59,209 bases of DNA from contig JBJEUL010000176.1 of assembly GCA_051883835.1 (NCBI GenBank), forward strand, positions 1-59,209. Reading direction: 5' to 3'. The notes under the pieces are model-generated. The model saw nothing but the letters and a program-made list of their open reading frames with translations. It did no database searches and had not been told where the DNA came from. This stretch comes from Aristaeellaceae bacterium. GTDB lineage: Bacteria > Bacillota > Clostridia > Christensenellales > Aristaeellaceae. This document shows positions 3,941-58,290 of this stretch, in pieces. A program made the position numbers and the translations under genes. Position 1 is the stretch's first letter. Each line of letters starts with the position of its first letter.

Positions 3941-4999
3941 ATGTACAAGACCCGTGTCGTCCCCGTGGGGACGCTGAAGCTGGGCGGCGACAACCCCGTG
4001 TGGGTGCAGTCCATGACCAACACCGACACCGCCGATGTCCCTGCAACGCTGAATCAAATCCGCGCACTGGCGGAAGCCGGATGCGATATCGTGCGCGTGA
4101 GCGTATACAACGAGGCCTGCGCCCGTGCCGTGCGCCAGCTGGTGGACGCATCCCCCGTACCGCTGGTGGCGGACATCCACTTTGACCATCGGCTGGCCCT
4201 GCTGGCCATGGAAAACGGCATTCACAAGCTGCGCATCAACCCCGGCAACATTGGCGGGGAGAAGAACGTGCAGGCCGTGGCGGACTGCGCCAAGGCCCAT
4301 CATGTACCCATCCGCATCGGGGTGAACAGCGGCTCCATTGAGCGGGATATCCTCGCCCGGGACGGCGGCCCCACGGCCCGGGGCATGGTGGACAGCGCGC
4401 TGAATCACGCCCGGATGCTGGAAAAGGCAGGCTTTGGCGATATCGTGCTGTCCATGAAGGCCAGCGATGTGCGCCTGACCATCGAAGCCTATGAGCTGGC
4501 GGCGCAAAGCTGCGACTATCCCCTGCATGTGGGCGTGACGGAAGCCGGACTGCCGGGGCAGGGCACCATCAAGAGCGCGATTGGCATTGGTGCGCTGCTG
4601 GCGCGGGGGATTGGCAGCACCATCCGCGTGAGCCTGACGGGCTCGCCCATTCCCGAGGGCAAGGCCGCGTGGGATATCCTGCGCGCGCTGAACCTGCGCA
4701 CACAGGGGGTGCAGCTGGTATCCTGCCCGACCTGCGGGCGCACGGCCATTGACGTGGCGGGGATTGCGGCGCGGGTGGAAGCGGAGCTGGCGGATGTGAA
4801 GGTGCCGCTGAAGGTGGCCGTGATGGGGTGCGTGGTGAACGGCCCCGGCGAGGCGCGGGAAGCGGACATCGGCATTGCTGGCGGCAAGGGCTGCGGTGCC
4901 TTGTTCCGCAAGGGCCAGGAGCCAGTGAAGGTAGAAGGCGACCTTGCCGAAATCCTCATCCGCGAGGCCCGCAAAATCGCCGCCTCCAAAACCGAGTAA
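3941..4999 (+). CDS. ispG: 4-hydroxy-3-methylbut-2-enyl diphosphate synthase (flavodoxin)
   Basis: MYKTRVVPVGTLKLGGDNPVWVQSMTNTDT start, Fe-S ligands in VSCPTCGRT and GCVVNGPGE. GGAGG-type RBS before ATG 3941; the longer ORF from 3542 overlaps rseP and is not used. Confidence 0.93.
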   Translation: MYKTRVVPVGTLKLGGDNPVWVQSMTNTDTADVPATLNQIRALAEAGCDIVRVSVYNEACARAVRQLVDASPVPLVADIHFDHRLALLAMENGIHKLRINPGNIGGEKNVQAVADCAKAHHVPIRIGVNSGSIERDILARDGGPTARGMVDSALNHARMLEKAGFGDIVLSMKASDVRLTIEAYELAAQSCDYPLHVGVTEAGLPGQGTIKSAIGIGALLARGIGSTIRVSLTGSPIPEGKAAWDILRALNLRTQGVQLVSCPTCGRTAIDVAGIAARVEAELADVKVPLKVAVMGCVVNGPGEAREADIGIAGGKGCGALFRKGQEPVKVEGDLAEILIREARKIAASKTE

Positions 5000-5207
5000 C
5001 TCCAAGGGACCGCGCCAGCGGAAAGGGGTCAAGGGGCGATGCCCCTTGTGGGGTGCAGGGGTGAAACCCCTGCGCAGGTCTGGGCGGCAGCCCAGCGCAA
5101 CACGTTAGACCGGCAAAAAGGAAAAGAGAAAAACGCGAGTTTCCCAGCAGACGGCGCAGCCCACCCGCGTCGGAAACGGCAGGTTCCGCCATCTGCAAAG
5201 GAACGCC
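5000..5207 (+). repeat. Multi-hairpin intergenic repeat, copy A (full length; module 2 diverged)
   Basis: Starts 1 nt after the ispG TAA. Carries the CGCGCCAGCG core, hairpins CAAGGGGC-GAT-GCCCCTTG, GCAGGGGT-GAA-ACCCCTGC and CTGGGC-GGCA-GCCCAG, a purine-rich linker, the GTTTCC...GGAAAC module, and the GTTCC...GGAAC hairpin. Confidence 0.9.
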
Positions 5208-5235
5208 TTTCCCCTCCCGTATGGCTCCCACCATC

Positions 5236-8700: not shown

Positions 8701-10181
8701 TGAGCAAGGACGGCTTCGACATTCCCTTCGAGGTGTTCCTGGGCTTTGAGGGCGACAAGGTGCCCGATATCGACCTGAACTTCTCCGGCGAGTACCAAAA
8801 CCGCGCCCACCACTATGTGGAGGAGCTCTTCGGCCATGACCATGTGTTCCGCGCAGGCACCATCACGGGCCTTGCGGACAAGACGGCCTATGGCTATGTC
8901 GCGAAGTACCTGGAGGAGCGGGGCATTCAGACGGGCAACACGGAAAAGGAGCGGCTGGCCGCAGGCTGCGTGGGCGTGAAAAAGACCACCGGCCAGCATC
9001 CCGGCGGCATGGTGGTGGTGCCCAAGGAATACGAAATCTACCAGTTCACCGCCGTGCAGCATCCTGCGGACGATTTGGAGAGCGACTTTACCACCACGCA
9101 TTTCGACTTCAACTCCATGCACGACATTCTGGTCAAGCTGGACTGTCTGGGGCATGATGACCCCACGGTCATTCATATGCTGGAGGAGCTGACGGGCATC
9201 CCGCCCACGGAGGTGCCGCTGGATGACCCGGCAGTGCGCAGCCTGTTCCACTCCCCGGAGGCTCTGGGCGTTACCTCCGAGCAAATCGACTGCTCCACGG
9301 GCACCTTCGGCATCCCGGAATTCGGCACGGCCTTTGTGCGCGGCATGCTGGACGATACCACGCCTTCCACCATGGAGGAGCTGATTCGCATCTCCGGCCT
9401 GTCCCACGGCACGGACGTGTGGCTGGGCAATGCGCAGGATTTGATTCGCTCCGGCACAGCCGTGCTGCGGGAATGCGTCTGCTGCCGTGACGATATCATG
9501 AACTACCTCATCGACCGGGGCGTGGCCCCCAAGCTGGCCTTCACCACCATGGAGTCGGTGCGCAAGGGCAAGGGCCTCAAGCCTGAGATGGAAAAGGCCA
9601 TGATAGACAACAACGTGCCGGAATGGTTCATTGATTCCTGCAAGAAAATCAAGTACATGTTCCCCAAGGGCCATGCTGTGGCCTATGTGACCAGCGCACT
9701 GCGCATTGCGTGGTTCAAGGTGCATCATCCGCTGGCCTATTACGCGGCGTACTTCACCGTGCGCGGCGATGGTTTCGATGCCTGCACCATGCTCATTGAC
9801 CCGCAGACCATCAAGCAGAAAATCCGCGATATCAAGAACGATCCCAAGGCCACTGCCAAGGATCAAACCGCCGTCACCAGTCTGGAGCTGGTGCTGGAAA
9901 TGAACATGCGCGGCTTCCGCTTCCTGCCCTGCGACCTGTACAAGAGCCACGTCAGCCGCTTCCTGATTGAGGACGGCGCGCTGCGCTGCCCCTTCACGAG
10001 CCTGGGCGGCCTGGGCGAAAGCGCGGCCATCGCCATTGTGCGCGAGCGCGACAAGGCCCCCTTCCTGTCCATTGAGGACATGAAGGAGCGCACCAAAATA
10101 TCCAGTGCCGTCATCGAGCTGCTCCGCGCCCACGGCAGTCTGGAGGGTCTGAGCGAAACCAGCCAGGTAAGCTTCTTCTAA
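5757..10181 (+). CDS. polC: DNA polymerase III PolC-type alpha subunit
   Basis: PHP motif ELHMHTNMS, inserted DEDD exonuclease (VLDFESTGL, HNAAFD, HRAVHDA), zinc finger CTHC/CPLC, polymerase core. GGAG RBS before ATG 5757. Confidence 0.95.
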   Translation: MSYEDLLSQIYAALPHLKGQLSSPRVVYVWAQGKVYITFDSAVLVEEAAFLKMESILRKVFPQKPLALRVVSPGLKEDFLDNISRYKQVLTDFLKRNYPASVSWMEQIDWRCDGERITLTFPDDFSLQYMARQNITGRLAQAVKDIFSADVKVELTVAGNQEARLEEMRRERDKALQAAVTLQELASDHAAPPKEKKERKPTAPRPKKEPEKAPEKKPEPIFPQMTDTALGKPILGRGIADHPVEMKELASDSGLVVVQGDIFKLETKELKGGEMLLVTFAITDYTSSILCKTFLRFRKGGGFGRRKDDEAPLPPITEEERRAVMEKVEQIKLGMNVKVRGECLYDSFARELSISVRDMVPMERIEREDTAEEKRIELHMHTNMSNMDAMTPAGDLIKRAIKWGHPAVAITDHGVVQSFPAAFNAVKKQPIKLIPGCEGYLIDDKDVVKDADDRPLDDTIIVLDFESTGLNTAVDRVIEIGAVKLVGGTVTDSLSLLVNPQRPLSPKITEITGITDMMLADKPTAEQAIPQLMAFMDGHPIAAHNAAFDAALLQAELRRLGITYHAPVLDTLTLARKLYPDMKTHKLGSVCKQLGVSLKNAHRAVHDATATALCLAKMFQQIKEEKGYTKLSDLNLLQGGAIGESYHVILLVKTQAGLVNLNRLVSIGHLDYFRRRPHMPKKIIQQYREGLIIGSACEAGELFRAVLDNEPWEKLKEIASWYDYLEIQPIGNNAFLVREGRVPDEEGLRELNRTIVRLGEELGKPVVATGDVHFLDPHNAINRAIIQAGMGYEDCDQQPPLYFKTTNEMLEEFAYLGPKKCHEVVIDNPRMIADQVEKLQLFPIHPKGEDTFQPLWEDAADNIQNMTWNTARELYGDPLPEIVVKRLEKELKSIIGYGFATLYNIAQKLVKKSNDDGYLVGSRGSVGSSLVARMCGITEVNALPPHYRCTHCRKGFFDVDKSLYQVGVDLPDKDCPLCGKPLSKDGFDIPFEVFLGFEGDKVPDIDLNFSGEYQNRAHHYVEELFGHDHVFRAGTITGLADKTAYGYVAKYLEERGIQTGNTEKERLAAGCVGVKKTTGQHPGGMVVVPKEYEIYQFTAVQHPADDLESDFTTTHFDFNSMHDILVKLDCLGHDDPTVIHMLEELTGIPPTEVPLDDPAVRSLFHSPEALGVTSEQIDCSTGTFGIPEFGTAFVRGMLDDTTPSTMEELIRISGLSHGTDVWLGNAQDLIRSGTAVLRECVCCRDDIMNYLIDRGVAPKLAFTTMESVRKGKGLKPEMEKAMIDNNVPEWFIDSCKKIKYMFPKGHAVAYVTSALRIAWFKVHHPLAYYAAYFTVRGDGFDACTMLIDPQTIKQKIRDIKNDPKATAKDQTAVTSLELVLEMNMRGFRFLPCDLYKSHVSRFLIEDGALRCPFTSLGGLGESAAIAIVRERDKAPFLSIEDMKERTKISSAVIELLRAHGSLEGLSETSQVSFF

Positions 10182-10366
10182 AGGGATCGCGCCAGCGTCG
10201 AAGGGGTCAAGGGGCGATGCCCCTTGTGGGGTGCAGGGGTAAAACCCCTGCGCAGGTCTGGGCGGCAGCCCAGCGCAACATATTCGAACAGCCAAAAGGA
10301 ATCGGAAAAAATCAGAGTTTCCAAGCAGACGACGCAGTTCGTTCGCGCCGGAAACGGCAGGTTCCG
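10181..10366 (+). repeat. Multi-hairpin intergenic repeat, copy B (modules 1-2)
   Basis: Begins at the polC TAA. Same three hairpins (hairpin 2 loop AAA) and module 2 with a TCGTT (G:T wobble) variant. Confidence 0.9.
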
Positions 10367-10443
10367 CAGCCTGCACCGCAGAGCCTAATTAACGCACTGG
10401 AGCTTCCATCAACAAGGGAAGGCCAGCGTTCAGGAGGTATATC

Positions 10444-12017: not shown

Positions 12018-12362
12018 ATGGATCGGGTGGTCATCCGGTGGCAGGCGATGGCGGTGGCCTGTGTGCTGATTGTGGCCCTGTTTGCGGCAGGCCTGTGGAG
12101 CAACGCCCGGGATTTGCGCACCGCCCAGGAGCGGGAAACCGCCATGCAGGAAGAGCTCACGCACCTGCAGGAAATCGAGCTGGAGCTGTCTGCAGAGCTG
12201 GAAAAGGTCGGCACAGCGAGCTATATCGAGGCCCGCGCCCGGGAGGACTATGCGTTCCTGAAGCCGGGAGAGCTGCGCTTTGAGGTCATCAACCCCAAGG
12301 TGCTGGAGGGCTACACCCGGGAAGAGCTGCAAATTCTCATGGACGAAATAACCATGTACTGA
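12018..12362 (+). CDS. divIC: Septum formation initiator (DivIC/FtsB family)
   Basis: Single N-terminal TM helix, then a coiled coil (LRTAQERETAMQEELTHLQEIELELSAELEKV) and IEARAREDYAFLKPGE. GGGAG RBS before ATG 12018. Confidence 0.75.
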   Translation: MDRVVIRWQAMAVACVLIVALFAAGLWSNARDLRTAQERETAMQEELTHLQEIELELSAELEKVGTASYIEARAREDYAFLKPGELRFEVINPKVLEGYTREELQILMDEITMY

Positions 12363-12364
12363 TG

Positions 12365-12396
12365 GGGGAGCCTGCGTGCGCGGGTTCCTCTTTTTC
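12365..12396 (+). terminator. Intrinsic terminator after divIC
   Basis: Stem GGGGAGCC/GGGTTCCTC (with wobbles), followed by TTTTT (12391-12395). Confidence 0.45.
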
Positions 12397-12440
12397 TCAA
12401 TCGGATACAAAGGGACAAGGCGGAAGGGAGGCATGCTGTC

Positions 12441-13355
12441 ATGATAGCGGCAGTCATCGGGATCGGGTCCAATTCCGTGCGAATGCTGGTGGCACAGGTG
12501 GAGGGCAACCATGCACGGCGGCTGTGGCGGGACAGGGAAGGCACGCGGCTGTTTGCAGGGCTGGACAAGGACGGGTGCTTGCAGCAGGAAGCCATGGCCA
12601 CGACGGTGGCGGCGGTCAGGCGCATGGCGGAGGATGCCCGGGCCAGGGGCGCGCAGGAGGTGCGGCTCTTTGCCACCAGCGCGACCCGGGACGCGGCCAA
12701 TCAGGAAGCCTTTGCAGCCATGCTGCGCCAGCAGGCCGGTGTCGAGTTGGAGGTTTGCTCCGGGGAGAAGGAAGCCGAGCTGTCCTTCCTGGGGGCCACG
12801 GATGGGGATTACTGCGGCGTGATTGACATCGGCGGCGGCTCCACCGAGGTGGTGGTGGGGCAGGGCAAGCAGCTGCGGTGCGCCTTCTCCTGCCAGATGG
12901 GCGCGGTGCGGCTGCATCGGCGGCAAGCCATCGACTCCCACAGCGATCTGCCGCTGGTGGAACAGCTTGCCACGGATATTTTGACGGACAAGCTCCGGGA
13001 GCATCCCACGCTGACCCTGCCGGAGAAGTGGATTGGCACGGGCGGCACCTTCACCACGCTGGCAGCGATGGTCAAGGGCATTCGCTGGACGGATCGCACC
13101 TACATGCACGGCACGGTGCTGACCCTGGCGCAGGTGGAGCAGCAGGCATGGCTGCTCTCCGACATGCCCATGGCACAGCGGCTCAAGCACCCGGGCCTGC
13201 AGCCCCATCGGGCGGATATCGTGGTGCATGGCATCTGCATCCTGCTGGCGGTCATGAAGCGGCTGGGCATTGAACGCATCACCGTAAGCGAATACGGCAA
13301 TCTGGACGGCTATATGAAGGAGCTTTACGGCCTGAAGGGCGAAATCGCGCCCTGA
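12441..13355 (+). CDS. ppx: Ppx/GppA-family phosphatase (exopolyphosphatase-like)
   Basis: ASKHA-fold motifs AAVIGIGSNSVRMLVA and GVIDIGGGSTEVVVG. Confidence 0.85.
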   Translation: MIAAVIGIGSNSVRMLVAQVEGNHARRLWRDREGTRLFAGLDKDGCLQQEAMATTVAAVRRMAEDARARGAQEVRLFATSATRDAANQEAFAAMLRQQAGVELEVCSGEKEAELSFLGATDGDYCGVIDIGGGSTEVVVGQGKQLRCAFSCQMGAVRLHRRQAIDSHSDLPLVEQLATDILTDKLREHPTLTLPEKWIGTGGTFTTLAAMVKGIRWTDRTYMHGTVLTLAQVEQQAWLLSDMPMAQRLKHPGLQPHRADIVVHGICILLAVMKRLGIERITVSEYGNLDGYMKELYGLKGEIAP

Positions 13356-13492: not shown

Positions 13493-14977
13493 ATGAACAA
13501 GAAGGCTTTGCTTGCGCTGCTGCTGGTGATGGCCATGCTGCTGTCCGGCTGCGCGCTGGTCGAGAAGGATATGGCGGTTGACCGCGCCACGGAAATCATC
13601 CGCGTGGGTGACCGGGTCTTTACCAAGGGTGAAATTCAGGACGAGGTTGACTATCAGCTCAACTACACGGCGTACCTGTACAGCATGTTCGGCATGAGCT
13701 ATGATATCACCAGCGAAGCGGTCATTGCGCAAGCGCAGCAGGCTGTGGTGGATGCGCTGGTGGAGCAGGCCGTGTCCGAGGCGAAGATTGCCGAGCTGGG
13801 CCTGGATCAGCTGACCGAGGAGGAGCAGGCCGAGCTGGACGCGAATGCCGCTGCCACCTGGCAGTCCAATCTGGACAGCATTCAGCGCAGCTATCTGGCC
13901 GATACCGAGCTGACCGGCGATGAGCTGACCGCCGCGCTGGAGGCCAAGGCGGCTGAGCTGGGCGTGACGTATGAGAGCGTGGTGGACTACGAGAAGTCCG
14001 TCATCACGGCTGAGAAGCTGTACAATTACGTCATCGCGGATGTGGTCGTGACCGATGCGGAGCTGCAAGCTGCCTATGACGAGCAGGTGGAGCAGGCCAA
14101 GACCACCTATACGTCCAGCCCCGCCAGCTATGTGTCTGCCGCCAATGCGGGCAGCACCGTGTATTACCGTCCCGCCGGCTTCCGGCAGGTCAAGCAGATT
14201 CTGATTTCCTTTACGGAGGAGGATCAGGCGGTGCTGGACGAGCTGGACAGCAAGATTGCCGATGAGGAGGCCCTGATTGCTTCCTACATGAGCAGCCTGA
14301 GTGCTCTGGGCATCACCGATGTGGACGCGCTGGTGCAGCAGGTGAATGTCACGCTGGAGCAGGCCGCTGCGGAGGATACCGACCCGGCGACCCAGACCGA
14401 CCTTGCCGCCGCGGTTGTGGCGACTGTGACCGACATCAGCGATTCCTTTGGCGAGGAAGTGACCGAGGAAGTGGCCGAGCTGGCCCGCCTGCTGGCTGAG
14501 TCCAAGGAGAAGCTGTCCTTCTACAGTGCACAGCAGAAGATGGCTGAGAAGCTGGCCTATGCCGCCATCGCGCCCGAAGCGGATGACGTGCTGGCGCAGC
14601 TGGCTGACGGTGCGGACTGGGATACCCTCATGGCCGAAAAGACCGACGACCCCGGCATGCAGGGCGACAGTGTGACCGCGCAGAACGGCTACACCATCTA
14701 CGCCGAGCAGACCAACTTTGACGAAGCGTTCCTGACTGCCGCCATGGCCCTGGAGAACGTGGGCGATGTGTCCGACAAGGTGCAGGGCATGTACGGCTAT
14801 TACATCATCCAGTACACCGCTGATGTGGTGGAGGGCCCTGTGGCCCTGGAGGAGGTCAGCGAAACGCTGTCCGCCGAGCTGCTGTCCGACAAGCAGGACA
14901 CCACCTATGACGCGACGGTCGCGCAGTGGATTGAAGCCGCCAAGCCCACAATCGACTACAACGCCCTGAACAACTAA
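13493..14977 (+). CDS. Secreted lipoprotein with SurA-N/PpiC-type peptidyl-prolyl isomerase architecture (PrsA-like foldase)
   Basis: Signal peptide MNKKALLALLLVMAMLLSGC with a lipobox Cys, long acidic helical region, C-terminal rotamase-like GYTIYAEQTNFDEAFLTAAMALENVGDVSDKVQGMYGYYIIQY. Confidence 0.72.
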   Translation: MNKKALLALLLVMAMLLSGCALVEKDMAVDRATEIIRVGDRVFTKGEIQDEVDYQLNYTAYLYSMFGMSYDITSEAVIAQAQQAVVDALVEQAVSEAKIAELGLDQLTEEEQAELDANAAATWQSNLDSIQRSYLADTELTGDELTAALEAKAAELGVTYESVVDYEKSVITAEKLYNYVIADVVVTDAELQAAYDEQVEQAKTTYTSSPASYVSAANAGSTVYYRPAGFRQVKQILISFTEEDQAVLDELDSKIADEEALIASYMSSLSALGITDVDALVQQVNVTLEQAAAEDTDPATQTDLAAAVVATVTDISDSFGEEVTEEVAELARLLAESKEKLSFYSAQQKMAEKLAYAAIAPEADDVLAQLADGADWDTLMAEKTDDPGMQGDSVTAQNGYTIYAEQTNFDEAFLTAAMALENVGDVSDKVQGMYGYYIIQYTADVVEGPVALEEVSETLSAELLSDKQDTTYDATVAQWIEAAKPTIDYNALNN

Positions 14978-14978
14978 T

Positions 14979-15187
14979 CTCCAAGGGAACGCGCCAGCGT
15001 AAAAAGGGTCAAGGGGCGATGCCCCTTGTGGGGTGCAGGGGCAAGGCCCCTGCGCAGGTCTGGGCGGCAGCCCAGCGCAACACGTTCCATTTACTCAAAG
15101 GGAAAAGAAGCAACGTGAGTTTCCAGGCAGACGACGCAGTTCGTCCGCGTAGGAAACGGCAGGTTCCGAAGCCCGCCAGGGAACGCC
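14979..15187 (+). repeat. Multi-hairpin intergenic repeat, copy C (full length)
   Basis: Begins 2 nt after the stop of the PrsA-like gene. Hairpin 2 carries the C-G closing-pair variant GCAGGGGC-AAG-GCCCCTGC. Confidence 0.9.
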
Positions 15188-15226
15188 CTCATCCCCCGCT
15201 GCGCCCCGTTCCATTCCCGACAAACC

Positions 15227-18719: not shown

Positions 18720-18724
18720 CAATT

Positions 18725-18912
18725 CCCCAGGGACCGCGCCAGCGGAAAGGGGTCAAGGGGCGATGCCCCTTGTGGGGTGCAGGGGTGAAGCCCCTGCGCA
18801 GGTCTGGGCGGCAGCCCAGCGCAACACGTTCGCATTGTAAAACGGAACCGCAAAAAACGTGAGTTTCCAAGCAGACGACGCAGTTCGTCCGCGCTGGAAA
18901 CGGCAGGTTCCG
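18725..18912 (+). repeat. Multi-hairpin intergenic repeat, copy D (modules 1-2)
   Basis: Begins about 6 nt after the SCIFF-maturase TGA. Hairpin 2 has the T:G variant (GCAGGGGT-GAA-GCCCCTGC). Confidence 0.9.
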
Positions 18913-18972
18913 CAGCCTCTATCGGTGTGCCCTCGCCCCAGTCGTATCTTTGCAGATTCTATAGAAAAAAGC

Positions 18973-22733: not shown

Positions 22734-23753
22734 ATGACCATCATCGTGACCGGCGGTGCCGGGTTCATCGGCAGCAACTTTATCTTCCACATGCTGGACA
22801 AGCACCCGGAGGATCGTATTATCTGCCTGGACAAGCTGACCTATGCGGGCAACCTCAGCACCCTGAAGGGCGTGATGGACAAGCCCAATTTCCGCTTCGT
22901 GAAGGCGGACATCTGCGACCGGGAGGCGGTGTTCGCCCTCTTTGAGGAGGAGCATCCCGATATCGTGGTCAACTTCGCGGCGGAGAGCCACGTTGACCGC
23001 TCCATCGAGAACCCCGGCGTGTTCCTGCAAACCAACATCATCGGCACGGCCACGCTGATGGATGCCTGCCGCAAGTACGGTATCCAGCGGTATCATCAGG
23101 TGTCCACGGATGAGGTCTACGGTGATTTGCCGCTGGATCGGCCTGACCTGTTCTTCACCGAGGAAACCCCCATTCATACCTCCAGCCCCTATTCCTCCTC
23201 CAAGGCCGGGGCTGACCTGCTGGTGCTGGCCTATCACCGCACCTTCGGCCTGCCGGTGACCATTTCCCGCTGCTCCAACAATTACGGCCCCTATCATTTC
23301 CCGGAAAAGCTCATCCCCCTGATGATTGCCAACGCCCTGGCCGACAAGCCCCTGCCCGTCTACGGCACCGGCGAGAACGTCCGCGACTGGCTCTATGTGG
23401 AGGATCACTGCAAGGCCATTGACCTGATTATCCGCAAGGGCCGGGTGGGCGAGGTGTACAACATCGGCGGCCACAATGAGATGCGCAATATCGACATCGT
23501 GAAGATCATCTGCCAGACGCTGGGCAAGCCCGAGAGCCTTATCACCTATGTCACCGACCGCAAGGGCCATGACCTGCGCTATGCCATCGACCCCACGAAA
23601 ATCCACAGCGAGCTGGGCTGGCTGCCGGAAACGAAGTTTGTGGACGGCATTCAAAAGACCATCCAGTGGTACCTGGACAACAGGGATTGGTGGGAAGAAA
23701 TCATCTCCGGGGAATACCAGCAGTATTATCAGAAAATGTACGGCGACCGGTGA
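22734..23753 (+). CDS. rfbB: dTDP-glucose 4,6-dehydratase
   Basis: TGGAGFIGSNF Rossmann motif, VSTDEVYG, YSSSKAGADLL (YxxxK). Confidence 0.93.
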   Translation: MTIIVTGGAGFIGSNFIFHMLDKHPEDRIICLDKLTYAGNLSTLKGVMDKPNFRFVKADICDREAVFALFEEEHPDIVVNFAAESHVDRSIENPGVFLQTNIIGTATLMDACRKYGIQRYHQVSTDEVYGDLPLDRPDLFFTEETPIHTSSPYSSSKAGADLLVLAYHRTFGLPVTISRCSNNYGPYHFPEKLIPLMIANALADKPLPVYGTGENVRDWLYVEDHCKAIDLIIRKGRVGEVYNIGGHNEMRNIDIVKIICQTLGKPESLITYVTDRKGHDLRYAIDPTKIHSELGWLPETKFVDGIQKTIQWYLDNRDWWEEIISGEYQQYYQKMYGDR

Positions 23754-24600: not shown

Positions 24601-24610
24601 CCCCCCCCCA

Positions 24611-24816
24611 ACGGACCGCGCCAGCGGAAAGGGGTCAAGGGGCGATGCCCCTTGTGGGGTGCAGGGGTGAAACCCCTGCGCAGGTCTGGGCGGCAGCCCA
24701 GCGCAACACGCCCGAACAGCAAAAAAGGAAAAGAGAAAACGTGAGTTTCCAAGCAGACAACGCAGTTCGTCCGCGTAGGAAACGGCAGGTTCCGCATACC
24801 TGCATGAGGAACGACC
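24611..24816 (+). repeat. Multi-hairpin intergenic repeat, copy E (full length)
   Basis: Follows the rfbD TAA after a C9 run. All four hairpins are present. Module 2 has GACAA (one mismatch). Confidence 0.9.
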
Positions 24817-24837
24817 TCATCCGACTTCGCTTCGCCC

Positions 24838-31735: not shown

Positions 31736-31736
31736 C

Positions 31737-31845
31737 CTCCAAGGAACCGCGCCAGCGTCGAAGGGGTCAAGGGGCGATGCCCCTTGTTCGGTAGCAGGGG
31801 TGAAACCCCTGCGCAGGGCTGGGCGGCAGCCCAGCGCAACATGTT
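31737..31845 (+). repeat. Multi-hairpin intergenic repeat, copy F (module 1 only, truncated)
   Basis: Begins 2 nt after the dut TAA and ends after CCCAGCGCAAC. Inter-hairpin spacer variant GTTCGGTAGC, similar to the GCTCGGTAGC variant of copy H. Confidence 0.85.
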
Positions 31846-31896
31846 CGACCACCCTGTACCCCCATTGTTTTTTTGTGCCATGGGGAATCCGATTTC

Positions 31897-40857: not shown

Positions 40858-41071
40858 ACCCCACCAAGGGAACGCGCCAGCGGAGAAGGGTCAAGGGGCG
40901 ATGCCCCTTGTGGGGTGCAGGGGTAAAACCCCTGCGCAGGTCTGGGCGGCAGCCCAGCGCAACATGTTGAAACAACCCAAAAGGAAAAGGAAAAATCAGA
41001 GTTTCCAAGCAGACGACGCAGTTCGTCCGCGTCGGAAACGGCAGGTTCCGGGGAACTGCAAGAGGAACGCC
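40858..41071 (+). repeat. Multi-hairpin intergenic repeat, copy G (full length)
   Basis: Begins immediately after the ttcA TAG. All four hairpins are present. Forms a tail-to-tail pair with copy H. Confidence 0.9.
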
Positions 41072-41203
41072 CCATCAACACACACGGCCCTGCAGAATGT
41101 ATGCTGTCCTGCAGGGCCGTCGTATGAACAAGAAAGCTGCTGCCCGGTTGAGGGACAGCGGCTTGTGTGCATTGGGGGAACGATACGCTCCTTTGGGAGA
41201 ATT

Positions 41204-41399
41204 CGGAACATGCCGTTTCCAGCTCGAACGAACTGCGTCGTCTGCTTGGAAACTCACGCTTTTTCCTTTCTTTTTGGATAAGTGGGACGTGTTGCGCTGG
41301 GCTGCCGCCCAGACCTGCGCAGGGGTTTCACCCCTGCTACCGAGCAAGGGGCATCGCCCCTTGACCCCTTTCCGCTGGCGCGTTCCCTTGGTGGGGTCG
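41204..41399 (-). repeat. Multi-hairpin intergenic repeat, copy H (only minus-strand copy; modules 1-2)
   Basis: The reverse complement aligns end to end with the other copies (CCAAGGGAACGCGCCAGCGGAAAGGGGTCAAGGGGCGATGCCCCTTG...GAGTTTCCAAGCAGACGACGCAGTTCGTTCG). Confidence 0.9.
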
Positions 41400-41417: not shown

Positions 41418-41446
41418 TTGACGAAATGGGCGGAAAACGATATAAT
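41418..41446 (+). promoter_or_regulatory. Putative sigma-A promoter of the small-ORF-secDF unit
   Basis: TTGACG (41418-41423), 17 nt, TATAAT (41441-41446). Confidence 0.5.
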
Positions 41447-41902: not shown

Positions 41903-43234
41903 ATGAAATCCAACAATCGCAAGCGCGGCAATGGCAAGACCCGCTCCATCATCGCGCTGTCCATCGTGCTGGTGCTGACCATCGCCATCGGCATCATCGC
42001 AGTGACCGGCATGCCCCTTGACAGCCGCGGCCTGTACAAGCTCAAGTCCTGGCTGCCCACCACCAACGCCGAGAACTGGCCCACCACCCTGTCCCTGGGC
42101 CTTGACCTGCGCGGCGGCGTGTATGTGGAGTACTCCGCTGCCCGCCCCGAGAACAGCGAGGCCAATTTCGACTCCCTGATGGAAGGCACCATCGGCGTCA
42201 TCCAGCAGCGTCTGACCGACAAGGGCTATGCGGAAAGCACCGTGCAGCGCATCGGCGGTGACGGCATCCGCGTGGAAATCCCGGACGTGACCGACCCCGC
42301 CGCCGTGCTGGATCTGATTGGCTCTCCCGCGCAGCTGGAGTTCCGTACCCCCAGCGGTGAAACCTTCATGACCGGCGACATGGTGGAAACTGCCACCGTG
42401 GCCTATCAGGAAGGCGAGTATGTCGTGGCCTTCAAGCTCAACGATGAGGGCGCGAAGATTTTCGCGGAAAAGACCGCTGAGTACCTGAACCAGTCCATCG
42501 CCATCTATCTGGACGGCGTGCAGCTCATCAATCCCCGGGTGCAGACCGTCATCACCGGCGGCAGCGGCATCATCAACGGCATGGACGGCGAGGAAAATGC
42601 CCGCACCATCGCGGCTAAGATTCAGTCCGGTGCCCTGCCCCTGGTGCTGACCCAGCAGAAGGTTGATACCGTGTCCGCCACCCTGGGCGACAACGCCCTG
42701 TCCACCTCCGTGCTGGCGGCCATGATCGGCATTCTGCTGGTGATGCTGGTGATGGTCATCCGCTATCGCCTGAACGGCGTCATTGCTTCCTGGGCCCTGG
42801 TCATCTACATCATTACCCTGTTCTTCCTCATCGCGGTCATTCCGGGCATTCAGCTGACGCTGCCGGGCCTGGCCGGTGTGGTGCTGGGCATCGGCATGGC
42901 GGTGGACGCCAATGTTATCATCTTCGAACGCTTTAACGAGGAAGTCCGCGCGGGCAAGAGCCTGAAGGCCTCCGTGCGCATGGGCTTCAAGAACGCCATG
43001 AGCGCCATCCTGGACGCCAACGTGACCACGCTGATCGCCTCCCTGGTGCTTCTGTGGTACGGCACGGGCTCCATCCAGGGCTTCGCCAAGACGCTGCTGC
43101 TGAGCGTGGTGACCTCCATGTTCACGGCGATTGTGGTGACGCGCTTCCTGATGAAGAATGTTGTGAACCTGGGCGGCCTTGATGTGAAGCTGTTCACCTC
43201 CGGCGTGCAGGTGCGGAAGGAGGAGCAGAAATGA
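41903..43234 (+). CDS. secD: Protein translocase subunit SecD
   Basis: LGLDLRGGVYVEY, periplasmic-type P1 domain, C-terminal 5-TM block with GIGMAVDANVIIFERF. Confidence 0.9.
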   Translation: MKSNNRKRGNGKTRSIIALSIVLVLTIAIGIIAVTGMPLDSRGLYKLKSWLPTTNAENWPTTLSLGLDLRGGVYVEYSAARPENSEANFDSLMEGTIGVIQQRLTDKGYAESTVQRIGGDGIRVEIPDVTDPAAVLDLIGSPAQLEFRTPSGETFMTGDMVETATVAYQEGEYVVAFKLNDEGAKIFAEKTAEYLNQSIAIYLDGVQLINPRVQTVITGGSGIINGMDGEENARTIAAKIQSGALPLVLTQQKVDTVSATLGDNALSTSVLAAMIGILLVMLVMVIRYRLNGVIASWALVIYIITLFFLIAVIPGIQLTLPGLAGVVLGIGMAVDANVIIFERFNEEVRAGKSLKASVRMGFKNAMSAILDANVTTLIASLVLLWYGTGSIQGFAKTLLLSVVTSMFTAIVVTRFLMKNVVNLGGLDVKLFTSGVQVRKEEQK

Positions 43235-44127
43235 CAATCAAGAATCACGCCAAGGTCTGCCTGATGGTCTCGGCGGCCATCATGGCACTTGCGCTGGTGC
43301 TGAGCCTGTTTGGCATGGGCATCAACATGGGTATTGACTTTGCCGGCGGTCTGTCCATGCAGTACAGCATGGGCGGTGCCTTCGAGCAGAATGATGTGAA
43401 GGCCGTGCTGGATGCGATGAACGTGGGCGACTACGCCATCACCGTGCAGGGCGCGAACCGTGATGAAGTGAACGTGCGCATCAAGAGCGTGAACGAGGAC
43501 GGCGTACAGGGCGTGCAGGCAGCCTTCGAGGAGGGCCTTGCCGAGAAGTACCCCGCCATGGCGCAGTCCGGTGACGTGAACTACGTCGGCCCCGTGGCCG
43601 GTGCCACGCTGCTGAAGAACGCCTTCATCTCCGTGCTGCTGGCCAGCGTGCTGATGCTGGTGTACATCGCCTTCCGCTTCGACTTCAACTCCGGCGTGGC
43701 GGCGGTGTTCGGCCTGCTGCATGACGTGCTGATGATGCTGGCCTTCATGGTGCTGCTGCGCAATTTCGTGCAGATGAATTCGTCCTTCATTGCGGCGATG
43801 CTGACCATCGTGGGCTATTCCATCAACAACACCATCGTCATCTTTGACCGCATCCGCGAGAACGCCCGCAAGATGCCCACTGCGGCCCGTGAGGACGTGG
43901 TGAACCGCTCGGTCAAGGAGTGCCTGGGCCGCACCATCAACACCACCCTGACCACGCTGATTACCATTGTTGCGCTGTATGTGCTGGGTGTGGACTCCAT
44001 CAAGGAGTTTGCGCTGCCCATCATCATTGGCATTCTGAGCGGTGCCTACAGTGCGAACATGATTAACGGCTACGTCTGGGCCGTGCTGGAGGAGCGTCGT
44101 CGCGCCCCCAAGGCCAAAAAAGCCTAA
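43231..44127 (+). CDS. secF: Protein translocase subunit SecF
   Basis: GIDFAGG motif, TIVGYSINNTIVIFDRIREN. 4-nt overlap with secD. Confidence 0.9.
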   Translation: MTIKNHAKVCLMVSAAIMALALVLSLFGMGINMGIDFAGGLSMQYSMGGAFEQNDVKAVLDAMNVGDYAITVQGANRDEVNVRIKSVNEDGVQGVQAAFEEGLAEKYPAMAQSGDVNYVGPVAGATLLKNAFISVLLASVLMLVYIAFRFDFNSGVAAVFGLLHDVLMMLAFMVLLRNFVQMNSSFIAAMLTIVGYSINNTIVIFDRIRENARKMPTAAREDVVNRSVKECLGRTINTTLTTLITIVALYVLGVDSIKEFALPIIIGILSGAYSANMINGYVWAVLEERRRAPKAKKA

Positions 44128-44337
44128 CTCCAAGGGACCGCGCCAGCGGAAAGGGGTCAAGGGGCGATGCCCCTTGTGGGGTGCAGGGGTGAAGCCCCTG
44201 CGCAGGTCTGGGCGGCAGCCCAGCGCAACACGCCCCACTTATCCAAAAGGAAAGGAAAAAGCGTGAGTTTCCAAGCAGACGACGCAGTTCGTCCGCGCTG
44301 GAAACGGCAGGTTCCGGGGACTGAAAGAGGAACGACC
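44128..44337 (+). repeat. Multi-hairpin intergenic repeat, copy I (full length)
   Basis: Begins 1 nt after the secF TAA. The first 31 nt from the stop codon (TAACTCCAAGGGACCGCGCCAGCGGAAAGGGG) are identical to copy A. Hairpin 2 has the T:G variant. Confidence 0.9.
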
Positions 44338-44507
44338 TCATCCGACCTCGCAGCCCTCGGCCCCGAAGACTTTCCGCCCCCTCTCGCTGGGCTTCCTGCC
44401 CAACATGCGGTGCCGTGAAATACCACTTCCTTGACAAACAGAGGAGGGGCCTTGATGTTCAAGGTTCCTCCTTTTCGATTCAGCCATGAAGGATGGAGGC
44501 AAGACCC

Positions 44508-55078: not shown

Positions 55079-57433
55079 ATGATGAAAGAGAAAACACTGC
55101 GCGTCCTGGAGTTTACAAAGATTCGTGATCAGCTGGCCGGCAAGGCCCTGACGGAGATGGGTGCGGAACGCTGCCGCGCCCTGACCCCCTCGTGCAACAT
55201 GGCTGAAATCCAGCTCTGGCAGCAGGAAACCGAGGAAGCCGCCGTTGTGCTGCAATACATGGGCGGCCACCCGATGATGGCCTTTCAGGACGTGCGGCCC
55301 TTCCTGATGATGGCCGAGAAGGGGGCAACGCTGTCCCCCCGGGCTCTGCTGAATGTGGCTGAGCTGCTGCGGGCTGCCCGCGTGGCCCGGGACGCGCTGG
55401 TCACCGACAGGGACAACACGCCCCTGCTGCGCGGCAAGGCCGAGGGCCTGTGCGTGCTGCGCAATCTGGAGCAGGATATCTCCGATGCCATCCTCTCGGA
55501 GGATGAGATTGCCGACCAGGCATCCAGCGAGCTGATGAACATCCGCCGGCATTTGCGGGGAGCCAATGAGCGCATCAAGGAGAAGCTGAACCAGATGGTG
55601 CGCAACCAGACCTTCCAAAAGTACCTGCAGGACCCCATCATCACCGTGCGCAATGACCGCTATGTGCTGCCGGTGAAGGCGGAATACCGCGCCAACGTGC
55701 CGGGCCTTGTGCATGACCAGTCCACCTCCGGGGCCACGCTGTTCATTGAGCCGCTGGCGGCGGTGGAGATGGGCAACGAGCTGAAGCAGTGGGAGCTCAA
55801 AGAGCGGCAGGAGATTGAACGCATTCTGGCCGCGCTGTCGGCGGAGGTGGCTCCCTACGCCGCCGCGCTGCGGGATACCATTGACCAGATGGCGGAGCTG
55901 GATTTCATCTTCGCCAAGGGCCTGCTGGCCCGGGAGCTGTTCGCCGTCACGCCCAAGCTCAATCAGGAAGGGCGTATCAACATCATCCGCGGACGGCATC
56001 CGCTCATTGACCGGGAGAAGGTCGTGCCCACCAACCTGTGGATGGGCCGGGACTTCACCACGCTCATCATCACCGGCCCCAACACCGGCGGCAAGACCGT
56101 CACGCTCAAAACCGTGGGCTTGTTCACGCTCATGGCGCAGGCCGGTTTGCAGGTGCCTGCGGATATCGGCACGGAGCTGGCGGTGTTCGAGCAGGTGTTT
56201 GCGGACATTGGCGATGAGCAGTCCATTGAGCAGAGCCTGTCCACCTTCTCCAGCCATATGGTGAACATCGTCAGCATCATGCAGGAGGTCACGCCCCGCG
56301 ACCTGGTGCTGTTCGATGAGCTGGGCGCAGGCACCGACCCCACCGAGGGTGCGGCACTGGCCCAGGCCATCCTGACGCGGCTTTTGCACATCCGTGTGCG
56401 GACGCTGGCCACCACCCATTACAGCGAATTGAAGGCCTTCGCGCTGTCCACCCGGGGCGTGGAGAACGCTTCCGTGGAGTTTGACGTGGAGACCCTGCGG
56501 CCGACCTACCGGCTGTCCATCGGCGTGCCGGGCAAGTCGAATGCCTTTGAAATCAGCCGCAAGCTGGGTCTGCCCGAGAACCTCATCGACGCCGCCAAGG
56601 AGCTGCTCTCCGGCGAGAACATCCGCTTTGAGGATGTGATTGCCAATGCGGAATACCACCGGCAGGTGGCCGAGCGCGAACGGGAAATCGCCGCGCAGGC
56701 CAGCGCAGAAACCGTCCGCCTGCGGGACGAGGCGGAGAAGCTGCGCAAGGAAATGGAGGAGAAGCGCGAAGGCGTCATGCGCAAGGCCAAGGAGGACGCC
56801 CGCCGCCTGATGGAGCAGACCCGCCGGGAATCCGAGAGCATCATCGCTGACCTGAAGCGCATGAAAAAGGAAATGCGCTCTCCCGATGCCGAAACCAACG
56901 CCATCCGCAAGCGCATTGAGCAGGGCGTGGACAGCCTCTCCGAGGGCCTGACCAAGAAGGTGGACAACACCCTGCCGCCCAAAACCGTCAAGCCCGGCGA
57001 CCGCGTGACCATTCTCACCCTGGGCCAGCAGGGCACGGTGCTTTCCGCCCCTGACAGCCGGGGCGAGGTGCAGCTGCAGGCAGGCATCATGAAATTCAAG
57101 GCGCACTTGTCGCAGCTGCGGCTCATCCGGGAGGAGCAGCCCAAGCAGAAGGCCACCGTCCGCACCGATACCGGCGCGATGACTCGCATGGCTCGGATGG
57201 AATGCGACGTGCGCGGCATGACCCTTGACGAAGCCCTCGATGCCGTCGACCAATTCCTGAACGAAGCCGTCCTCTCCGGCCTGAACGAGGTCTCCATCAT
57301 CCACGGCAAAGGCACCGGTGTCCTGCGCAGCGGCATCCAGCAGCACCTGCGCCATCACCTGCTGGTGAAAAGCAGCCGCCTTGGCATCTACGGCGAAGGC
57401 GAAACCGGCGTCACCATCGTCACCCTGAAATAA
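55079..57433 (+). CDS. mutS2: Endonuclease MutS2
   Basis: Walker A ITGPNTGGKT, LVLFDELGAGTDP, long coiled coil, C-terminal Smr domain (DVRGMTLDEAL...IIHGKGTGVLR). Confidence 0.93.
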   Translation: MMKEKTLRVLEFTKIRDQLAGKALTEMGAERCRALTPSCNMAEIQLWQQETEEAAVVLQYMGGHPMMAFQDVRPFLMMAEKGATLSPRALLNVAELLRAARVARDALVTDRDNTPLLRGKAEGLCVLRNLEQDISDAILSEDEIADQASSELMNIRRHLRGANERIKEKLNQMVRNQTFQKYLQDPIITVRNDRYVLPVKAEYRANVPGLVHDQSTSGATLFIEPLAAVEMGNELKQWELKERQEIERILAALSAEVAPYAAALRDTIDQMAELDFIFAKGLLARELFAVTPKLNQEGRINIIRGRHPLIDREKVVPTNLWMGRDFTTLIITGPNTGGKTVTLKTVGLFTLMAQAGLQVPADIGTELAVFEQVFADIGDEQSIEQSLSTFSSHMVNIVSIMQEVTPRDLVLFDELGAGTDPTEGAALAQAILTRLLHIRVRTLATTHYSELKAFALSTRGVENASVEFDVETLRPTYRLSIGVPGKSNAFEISRKLGLPENLIDAAKELLSGENIRFEDVIANAEYHRQVAEREREIAAQASAETVRLRDEAEKLRKEMEEKREGVMRKAKEDARRLMEQTRRESESIIADLKRMKKEMRSPDAETNAIRKRIEQGVDSLSEGLTKKVDNTLPPKTVKPGDRVTILTLGQQGTVLSAPDSRGEVQLQAGIMKFKAHLSQLRLIREEQPKQKATVRTDTGAMTRMARMECDVRGMTLDEALDAVDQFLNEAVLSGLNEVSIIHGKGTGVLRSGIQQHLRHHLLVKSSRLGIYGEGETGVTIVTLK

Positions 57434-57437
57434 GTCA

Positions 57438-57537
57438 ACTCCAAGCAATCGCGCCAGCGTCGAAGGGGTCAAGGGGCGATGCCCCTTGTGGGGTGCAGGG
57501 GCAACGCCCCTGCGCAGGTCTGGGCGGCAGCCCAGCG
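57438..57537 (+). repeat. Multi-hairpin intergenic repeat, copy J (module 1 only, truncated)
   Basis: Begins about 5 nt after the mutS2 TAA. Hairpin 2 has the C-G variant GCAGGGGC-AAC-GCCCCTGC. Ends at CCCAGCG. Confidence 0.85.
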
Positions 57538-57597
57538 TTCCCGGCAGGAAAACCCCAACGCTGTGGAGAATCCTGGCAAGCGGAGGTGCAATGAAGC

Positions 57598-58290
57598 ATG
57601 AAGGACAAGCCCTATATTTTACTGGTGGACGATGACCCCAACATCAGTCGCCTGGTGCAGCTGTATCTGGAGAAGGAAGGCTTCGAGGTCAAGACCGCCG
57701 ACCGGGGGGACGATGCCCTGGCAGCCTTTCGCCGTCTGCCCCCTGACCTGATGCTGCTGGACGTGATGCTCCCGGGCATGGACGGCTGGCAGGTGCTCAA
57801 GGCCATCCGCAAGACCAGCACGATTCCCATTATCATGCTCACCGCCAAGGACGAAACCTTCGACAAGGTGCTGGGGCTGGAGCTGGGCGCAGACGATTAC
57901 ATCACCAAGCCCTTTGACACCAAGGAGCTGGTGGCGCGGGTCAAGGCCGTGCTGCGCCGCACCCAGGGCGCGGAGGAGGAAAAACAGGAGGGCCTGTCCT
58001 TCCCGGGCCTCACCGTGAGCCTGACCCAGTACGAGGTGCATTACGAGGGCCGCAAGGTAGACATGCCCCCCAAGGAGCTGGAGGTGCTGCATTTCCTCGC
58101 CAGCCATCAAAATCAGGTGTTTACCAGGGAGCAGCTGCTGGAGCAGGTGTGGGGCTTCGACTTCTTCGGGGACAGCCGAACGGTGGATGTGCATATCAAG
58201 CGGCTGCGGGAAAAGCTGCAGGGCAGCGAAAAATATGGCTGGTGCATCAAGACCGTGTGGGGCGTGGGCTATAAGTTTGAAATGAAGTAA
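57598..58290 (+). CDS. OmpR-family response regulator
   Basis: Receiver ILLVDDDPNI...LMLLDVMLPGMDG...LTAK, winged-helix C-terminus TVDVHIKRLREKL...VWGVGYKF. Confidence 0.92.
   Translation: MKDKPYILLVDDDPNISRLVQLYLEKEGFEVKTADRGDDALAAFRRLPPDLMLLDVMLPGMDGWQVLKAIRKTSTIPIIMLTAKDETFDKVLGLELGADDYITKPFDTKELVARVKAVLRRTQGAEEEKQEGLSFPGLTVSLTQYEVHYEGRKVDMPPKELEVLHFLASHQNQVFTREQLLEQVWGFDFFGDSRTVDVHIKRLREKLQGSEKYGWCIKTVWGVGYKFEMK

Follow-up and report, generated by a model that had tools for sequence, protein, structure and literature searches.

What is the hairpin-rich sequence that follows the secF-like gene in an Aristaeellaceae genome, and on which of its two strands does it fold? The window analyzed here is a 59,209-nt stretch of DNA (contig JBJEUL010000176.1) from an Aristaeellaceae bacterium. 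It contains ten copies of a ~220-nt repeat, and the region at 44128-44337 is one of them, located between secF-like and recJ-like genes. A preliminary description of this region, made from its letters, had proposed that selection acts on a folded sense strand. The sequence at 44128-44351 is probably one member of a REP/BIME-like family of modular stem-loop repeats that are dispersed and specific to their lineage. Homologs of its SecF and MutS2 proteins assign the window to the Aristaeellaceae. In other words, the best reading is that of a new repeat family, in Aristaeellaceae, of a known bacterial repeat kind. The Aristaeellaceae are the former Christensenellaceae R-7 group; they are abundant in the rumen and gut and have been little studied. 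A literature search found no paper that describes repeats in this family.

The copy at this locus, called copy I, is on the plus strand and runs from 44126/44128 to 44351. The secF-like gene upstream of it (43231-44127, plus strand) ends in a TAA stop codon at 44125-44127, and the repeat begins at the following base. The SecF C-terminus and the stop codon are identical in relatives that do not carry the repeat. (An exact look-up of the window SecF protein returned no record, probably because of a different called start codon.) All parts of the copy are given here on the plus strand. The 5' end is a junction motif CTCCAAGGGAC (44128-44138), a variant of which recurs at the 3' end of the unit. 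Module 1 consists of four hairpins. Hairpin 0 (CGC-GCCA-GCG, 44139-44148) occurs as CGC-GGCA-GCG or CGC-GAA-GCG in other copies. Hairpin 1 (CAAGGGGC-GAT-GCCCCTTG, 44158-44176) is invariant within the window. Hairpin 2 (GCAGGGGT-GAA-GCCCCTGC, 44183-44201) has as its innermost pair T44190:G44194, the pair to which the preliminary description drew attention, and hairpin 3 (CTGGGC-GGCA-GCCCAG) is at 44208-44223. Module 1 is followed in the unit by an A-rich linker (44224-44266), the most variable part between copies, and then by the long module 2 hairpin (44267-44305), which has an outer stem GTTTCC/GGAAAC, an inner stem GACGA/TCGTC, and a conserved A:C at pair 11-28. The conserved tail GGCAGGTTCCG (44306-44316) matches the 5' GGGACCGCGCC imperfectly in inverted orientation. 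The copy ends with a 3' junction repeat and module 3, CTGAAAGAGGAACGACCTCATCCGACCTCGC (44321-44351), a span in which a second copy of the junction motif is followed by GACCTCATCCGAC and which is common to copy E and several loci in other genomes. The basic unit of this architecture is a GC-rich hairpin of ~20 nt (hairpins 1-3 of copy I are 16-19 nt). A GGGT or GGGGT head is found 5' of each hairpin, always on the same strand of the unit.

Other folds can be drawn within copy I. At 44300-44315, the 3' arm of the outer stem of module 2 (GGAAAC) has a potential alternative partner in a downstream GGTTCC, across a GGCA loop like those of hairpin 3 and of one variant of hairpin 0. This alternative fold and the module 2 outer stem are mutually exclusive. 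On the sense strand at 44153-44189, four GGGG runs fall within ~40 nt (GGGGTCAAGGGGC...TGGGGTGCAGGGG). The G-quadruplex potential of these runs is formal, and a quadruplex would compete with hairpins 1 and 2. No Rfam 15 family matched in the window at the gathering score, and permissive thresholds around the element yielded only chance-level matches (E > 1).

All ten copies in the window are intergenic, and the repeat makes up ~3% of the 59 kb. The copies are mutually 82-93% identical, with divergence mainly in the linker and nearly invariant stems. Nine copies are on the plus strand. Copy A (4998-5217) follows an ispG-like gene, copy B (10176-10397) follows polC, whose stop codon runs into the start of the repeat, copy D (18723-18940) follows a radical SAM gene, and copy E (24606-24827) follows an rmlD-like gene. 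Copies F (31736-31851) and J (57438-57538) consist of module 1 only and follow the dUTPase gene (dut) and mutS2, respectively. Copies C (14977-15199), G (40862-41080), and I complete the plus-strand set. The sole minus-strand copy, H (41175-41393), is arranged tail to tail with G and is behind no minus-strand gene. Copies G and H are ~95 nt apart, and hairpins are present between them (40862-41393). A promoter-like TTGACG-17-TATAAT at 41418-41446 adjoins H, ahead of the secD operon. A short tandem repeat CCCCCATTCATACCTCCAG elsewhere in the window (23167-23202, period 19, 1.9 copies) is unrelated to the hairpin repeat family.

How are the copies placed relative to genes? In the window, nine of the ten lie within 8 nt behind a plus-strand gene. 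The genes ahead of these nine copies are unrelated housekeeping genes: ispG, polC, radical SAM, rmlD, dut, PP-loop ATPase, secF, mutS2, and one gene without a Pfam match. Likewise, 39 of the 75 best module-1 matches start -7 to +22 nt from the stop of a co-oriented ORF that has a coding GC3 signature. An opposite-strand ORF ends near the 3' side in only 4 of these 75 matches, and the remainder are mostly inner members of arrays. In two convergent gene pairs (loci L015 and L027), each copy lies behind its own gene, which indicates that the orientation of a copy tracks transcription, not replication. Terminator-like hairpins with T runs are found downstream of copies C, D, E, and I, and copies B and J occupy short intercistronic spacers directly ahead of the ribosome-binding site of the next gene. 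The intrinsic-terminator-like hairpin downstream of copy I (44442-44475, plus strand), beyond which the recJ-like gene starts near 44493, is kept in relatives without the repeat, and this places copy I inside the secF 3' untranslated region. Given where the copies lie and how they are oriented with respect to genes and terminators, a sense transcript of the repeat is likely.

Could the repeat itself be a terminator or a coding sequence? A scan of copies G, H, and I called no terminator-like site. An antisense terminator consisting of the module 2 hairpin and the T-rich complement of the linker was rejected; its T run begins 5-6 nt beyond the stem, and no such terminator was called by the scan. 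An ATG in the hairpin 1 loop (44167 onward in the window; 215-994 in locus L002) opens a long frame through the element in several copies. The coding reading was rejected because the hairpin 2 loop (3 versus 7 nt) and linker indels differ between copies. As a result, the reading frame shifts from copy to copy, and the element is very unlikely to be coding.

The repeat family extends beyond the window. An exact search of genome contigs with the hairpin 1 21-mer found at least 55 stretches, and the matches listed all came from gut or rumen metagenome-assembled genomes labelled Aristaeellaceae, Clostridia, or Eubacteriales. Viral contigs had no match to the hairpin 1 21-mer. In a metagenome scan with the 17-mer GGAAACGGCAGGTTCCG, all 120 of 120 loci were chance matches, mostly to one unrelated coding sequence. 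A covariance model of module 1 gave 121 matches in 56 sources (the window and 55 loci). The full unit was found in closer genomes, and distant genomes showed hairpins 1 and 2 only or long strings of GGGGT-hairpin units. The ~220-nt unit occurs alone, with modules lost, or in tandem. For example, a tandem array of six full units with a 167-nt period lies between two co-oriented genes (L042, 3278-4292, minus strand), and another array consists of four module 2 units with a 76-nt period (L028, 6772-7067). A CRISPR reading of these two arrays was rejected; the stretches between the repeats are themselves repeated rather than unique spacers, so the arrays are tandem duplications. Variant hairpins are common to unrelated loci and genomes.

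Are the hairpin stems maintained as pairs? The preliminary description had reported that the innermost pair of hairpin 2 varies between window copies while remaining paired, and an alignment of the ten copies reproduced the reported states: six copies (A, B, E, F, G, and H) have T-A, two (C and J) have C-G, and two (D and I) have T:G. The same alignment reproduced the hairpin 2 loops (GAA, AAA, AAG, and AAC) and the variation in the module 2 inner stem, which is GACGA/TCGTC in C, D, G, and I and ends in TCGTT, with a G:T pair, in B and H. It also contained pairs that were absent from the preliminary description. The module 2 inner stem of copy E reads GACAA/TCGTC, with an A:C on the sense strand, and that of copy A contains two additional A:C pairs; an A:C is also present at module 2 pair 11-28 in every window copy. 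In the ten window copies alone, covariation at the hairpin 2 innermost pair was not significant (Fisher p = 0.13). The larger alignment that the preliminary description had called for, with 116 copies, gave significant covariation at this pair (p = 7e-18), its states being C-G in 81 copies, T-A in 20, T:G in 4, and C:A in 0.

The pairing extends through both modules, for which 116 module-1 copies and 42 module-2 copies were sampled; the module 1 pairing test used 120 distinct sequences. In the module 1 alignment, which was fitted to the covariance model and consists of copies related by descent, standard pairs were found in 97.1% of cells and both-sided changes at 23 of 25 pairs. The observed module 1 scores were reached in 0 of 500 shuffles, and the signal was lost when pairing partners were slid by one to three columns. 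Module 2 showed double changes at 5 of 14 pairs, as in GACGA/TCGTC, GGCGA/TCGCC, and GGATGC/GCATCC. Compared with shuffled sequence, both strands of 44128-44337 folded better (z = -3.7 for the sense strand and -4.3 for the antisense strand). These results support the conclusion that the stems are maintained as paired structures rather than as fixed sequence.

Which strand folds? The preliminary description favored a folded sense strand over simple sequence conservation, and only part of this claim holds: pairing is maintained in the stems, but the sense strand is not identified by the wobble pairs. The strand claim had been staked on mismatching variants being rarer than compensated ones. Sense-strand mismatches, which are wobbles on the antisense strand, turned out to be about as common as sense-strand wobbles, and the claim that wobbles single out the sense strand therefore fails. 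In module 1 there were 48 G:U versus 27 A:C pairs when counted by copy, and 38 versus 27 when counted by distinct stem type (p = 0.21). In module 2 there were 7 G:U versus 51 A:C pairs by copy, or 7 versus 19 when the conserved A:C pair 11-28 was left out. With wobbles included, the paired fraction of module 1 is 97.2% (sense) versus 96.4% (antisense), and that of module 2 is 88.6% (sense) versus 96.1% (antisense). At pair 11-28 of module 2, 32 copies have A:C, 9 have G-C, and 1 has A-T; read on the opposite strand, this is a classic series of G:U, G-C, and A-U. The converse is seen at hairpin 2, which is lengthened on the sense strand by a conserved U:G (UG 41, UA 1, CG 1). Strand-biased mutation was ruled out as the source of the G:U excess, because unpaired columns show no enrichment of C>T over G>A.

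Fold energies, which the preliminary description had suggested comparing, did not settle on one strand. Module 1 favored the sense strand by 5.2 kcal/mol (45 of 46 copies), module 2 favored the antisense strand by 2.5 kcal/mol (29 of 36 copies), and the eight full-length window copies showed no strand difference. RNAalifold gave -74.6 kcal/mol for the sense strand versus -72.7 kcal/mol for the antisense strand. The wobble pairs leave the folding strand undecided. One explanation, which is that of the preliminary description, is that the repeat is a functional sense RNA (or sense single-stranded DNA) whose hairpins are kept by selection on the sense fold alone. It agrees with the co-orientation of the copies with the upstream gene, which puts them in its 3' untranslated region, with the conserved U:G next to hairpin 2, with the better sense fold of module 1, and with the purine content of unpaired sense-strand positions (72%). 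It also agrees with the loop-closing C-G pairs of hairpins 1-3, which changed to T:G 9 times and to C:A 0 times, a pattern that favors the sense strand. However, the opposite is seen at the module 2 closing pair (A:C 9, G:T 0), and module 2 as a whole points the other way in both its A:C excess and its fold energy. Furthermore, the module 1 excess of G:U is small by stem type, and full-length copies have no energy difference between strands. Somewhat better folding of a G-rich strand, relative to its C-rich complement, is in any case to be expected, as G can pair with C and with U alike. The repeat is also missing at orthologous sites of close relatives, and blocks of it are swapped at orthologous loci, as described below. 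Selection on the sense fold alone is thus an unlikely explanation for the hairpins.

Comparison with relatives shows both empty sites and exchange among copies. The secF-recJ site is empty in four related loci (L056-L059) whose SecF homologs are 94% identical; their spacer is 90-150 nt and has the same stop and the same terminator hairpin. Among 15 secF-region loci from relatives, a copy was found in none (0/15). Likewise, L192 and L193 have an empty site behind mutS2. In these two relatives, a NUDIX gene is present between mutS2 and a response-regulator gene (L192 9208-9830; L193 12355-12971), and the corresponding interval of the window (57433-57598) contains copy J and no NUDIX gene. In L191, the post-mutS2 spacer is 180 nt long (12353-12531) and has a different sequence that is outside the repeat family; in other relatives this spacer is 16-20 nt.

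Where copies are present at orthologous sites in genomes that are ~92-95% identical, the differences between them concern entire hairpin blocks. A copy in L014 (492-589) has other versions of hairpins 2 and 3 than those in L006 (6243-6340) and L020 (6435-6532), and orthologous copies at L191 16107, L192 12803, L193 15944, and L195 7321 also differ by whole blocks; over all these loci, the block that differs is either the pair of hairpins 2 and 3 or module 2 in its entirety. Hairpin 1 varies by a swap of the closing pair plus the loop at a locus behind the shikimate kinase gene, where three unrelated module 2 variants are also found. Uncompensated T:T mismatches, which are rare, and decayed second units also occur at this locus. 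Because whole blocks are exchanged between copies, differences that look compensatory could have arisen in one step. The decayed second units at some loci indicate that not all copies are under constraint.

Does exchange alone account for the paired stems? If there were no selection on structure, palindromes would be regenerated by template switching within the palindrome and by gene conversion between copies. The wholesale replacement of hairpins 2 and 3 in L014 versus L006 and L020, the three module 2 variants at the shikimate kinase locus, and the variant hairpins held in common by unrelated loci and genomes are what such a process would produce. However, the window copies, at 82-93% identity, have a diverged linker and almost invariant stems, and the family as a whole contains many different stem sequences that are all still paired. 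The rare but present T:T mismatches fit ongoing purifying selection. An origin of the pairing without any selection on structure is therefore improbable.

A different explanation is that the repeat is a purely selfish DNA-folding element. Its hairpins would be recognized by a single-strand transposase (IS200/IS605 or RAYT type), only intact copies would propagate, and the orientation bias would come solely from the harm done by antisense insertions. The conserved GGGT or GGGGT head 5' of each hairpin on one strand, the presence or absence of copies among relatives, and the occurrence of tandem arrays and of REPIN-like inverted pairs such as G/H are consistent with this explanation. A DNA mini-hairpin of unusual stability, d(GCGAAGC), is part of the hairpin 0 variant CGCGAAGCG, and its presence would be in keeping with a fold of the single-stranded DNA. 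As for its occurrence, GCGAAGC or GGGGCGAAGCCCC forms are found in hairpin 0 of L008, L010, L013, L016, L031, L032, L035, and L048 and in single hairpins of L003, L045, L047, L052, and L060. Compensatory changes are also known in REPINs, where they are common and where tandem arrays occur (PMC3116915). On the other hand, a tblastn search of ~640 kb (the window and related loci) found no RAYT/IS200-like gene, and hence no Y1 transposase, although this counts weakly against the explanation because the IS200 TnpA query was approximate. The ORFs that lie between inverted pairs in L002 and L015 are acetyltransferase- and ribbon-helix-helix-like by eye. Furthermore, the orientation of copies follows the flanking gene even in convergent pairs, which a replication-fork preference does not predict, and copies at orthologous sites are stable between ~95% identical genomes. 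A purely selfish origin of the hairpins is possible but doubtful.

The reading of the repeat as a modular stem-loop family of the REP/BIME kind rests on its resemblance to the REP and BIME sequences of E. coli and other Proteobacteria. Like these, it is high-copy and extragenic, consists of short GC-rich imperfect palindromes combined into mosaics, lies behind stop codons in regions that are probably transcribed, and shows compensatory stem change. It differs from them in several respects. The GTAG/CGTC foot is missing and the head is GGGT or GGGGT instead; all hairpins of a unit face the same way, without BIME-like alternation; the hairpins belong to a fixed-order ~220-nt unit that includes an A-rich linker and the long hairpin of module 2; the repeat is co-oriented with the upstream gene; and the host belongs to the Firmicutes (Christensenellales). 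REPINs, the RAYT-mobilized REP doublets of Pseudomonas, in which two inverted REPs fold into one long hairpin, are similar in that each genome has a population of related hairpin repeats, and the inverted pair G/H resembles a doublet. However, nine of the ten window copies are single directed units, with only G/H inverted, and no RAYT gene flanked by repeats was seen in the ~640 kb searched with the approximate query.

Among the repeats of Firmicutes, the BOX element of Streptococcus pneumoniae (boxA-boxB-boxC) is a modular intergenic repeat whose modules are lost or multiplied and whose predicted structure is stable. The Aristaeellaceae repeat is likewise a modular intergenic Firmicute repeat with a stable predicted secondary structure, but strict sense placement behind stop codons is not a defining feature of BOX, and a sequence relation is not expected. 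MITEs are comparable in size (100-250 nt) and in showing presence/absence polymorphism at orthologous sites. The ends of the repeat form a terminal inverted match (5' GGGAACGCGCC versus 3' GGCAGGTTCCG, 8 of 11 positions) that pairs in the RNAalifold consensus, a pairing to which covariation gives no support. Unlike those of MITEs, the ends carry a direct repeat CAAGGGAACGC that resembles the start of the next unit, and no parent insertion sequence is known for the repeat. Since CAAGGGAACGC is present at both ends in every copy, it belongs to the element and is not a target-site duplication. No target-site duplication was visible at the copy ends, where the flanks differ between copies, and the MITE reading was rejected on this ground. 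An integron attC reading was also rejected. The flanking genes are housekeeping genes in conserved order, such as secDF-recJ-relA, not mobile cassettes, and the module 2 ends GTTTCC/GGAAAC do not fit the RYYYAAC/GTTRRRY core sites.

How might such a repeat have come about, and what might it do? In the preferred reading, that of a dispersed REP/BIME-like family, the repeat would have spread as non-autonomous mobile or duplicative DNA. Its sense strand would be transcribed within an mRNA 3' untranslated region, and exchange of whole hairpin blocks between copies may supply part of the apparent compensation. In E. coli, REPs in transcribed 3' regions protect the upstream mRNA from exonucleases (PMC5082802). 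A REP within 15 nt of a stop codon stalls ribosomes (PMC5082802, citing Liang et al. 2015). By analogy, if the Aristaeellaceae repeat has any role in mRNA, its hairpin cluster near the stop could be a barrier to 3'-to-5' exonucleases, or it could alternatively be a structure met by the terminating ribosome.

The tight placement behind stop codons invites two more specific proposals. The copies could make up a genome-wide sense-oriented 3'-UTR module, 0-10 nt behind the stops of housekeeping genes, that couples translation termination to mRNA decay or protection. Or the spread of the repeat could target the first post-stop bases in the direction of transcription. That one or the other of these holds seems very unlikely. 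To our knowledge, neither a stop-adjacent 3'-UTR module nor post-stop targeting has been described for repeats of Firmicutes.

The analysis carries a methodological lesson: a few wobbles in ten copies cannot assign a strand, especially where copies exchange blocks. For work on the family, repeat-rich loci occur in several related draft genomes, and the repeat probably fragments metagenome assemblies; it is also a marker for strain comparison. For the biology of these bacteria, the repeat extends the 3' untranslated regions of core genes, polC, secF, and mutS2 among them, by a long stretch of structure. If it is true that the stop-adjacent placement is functional, the repeat family would offer a natural system for the study, outside E. 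coli, of the effects that structures directly downstream of stops have on termination and mRNA decay.
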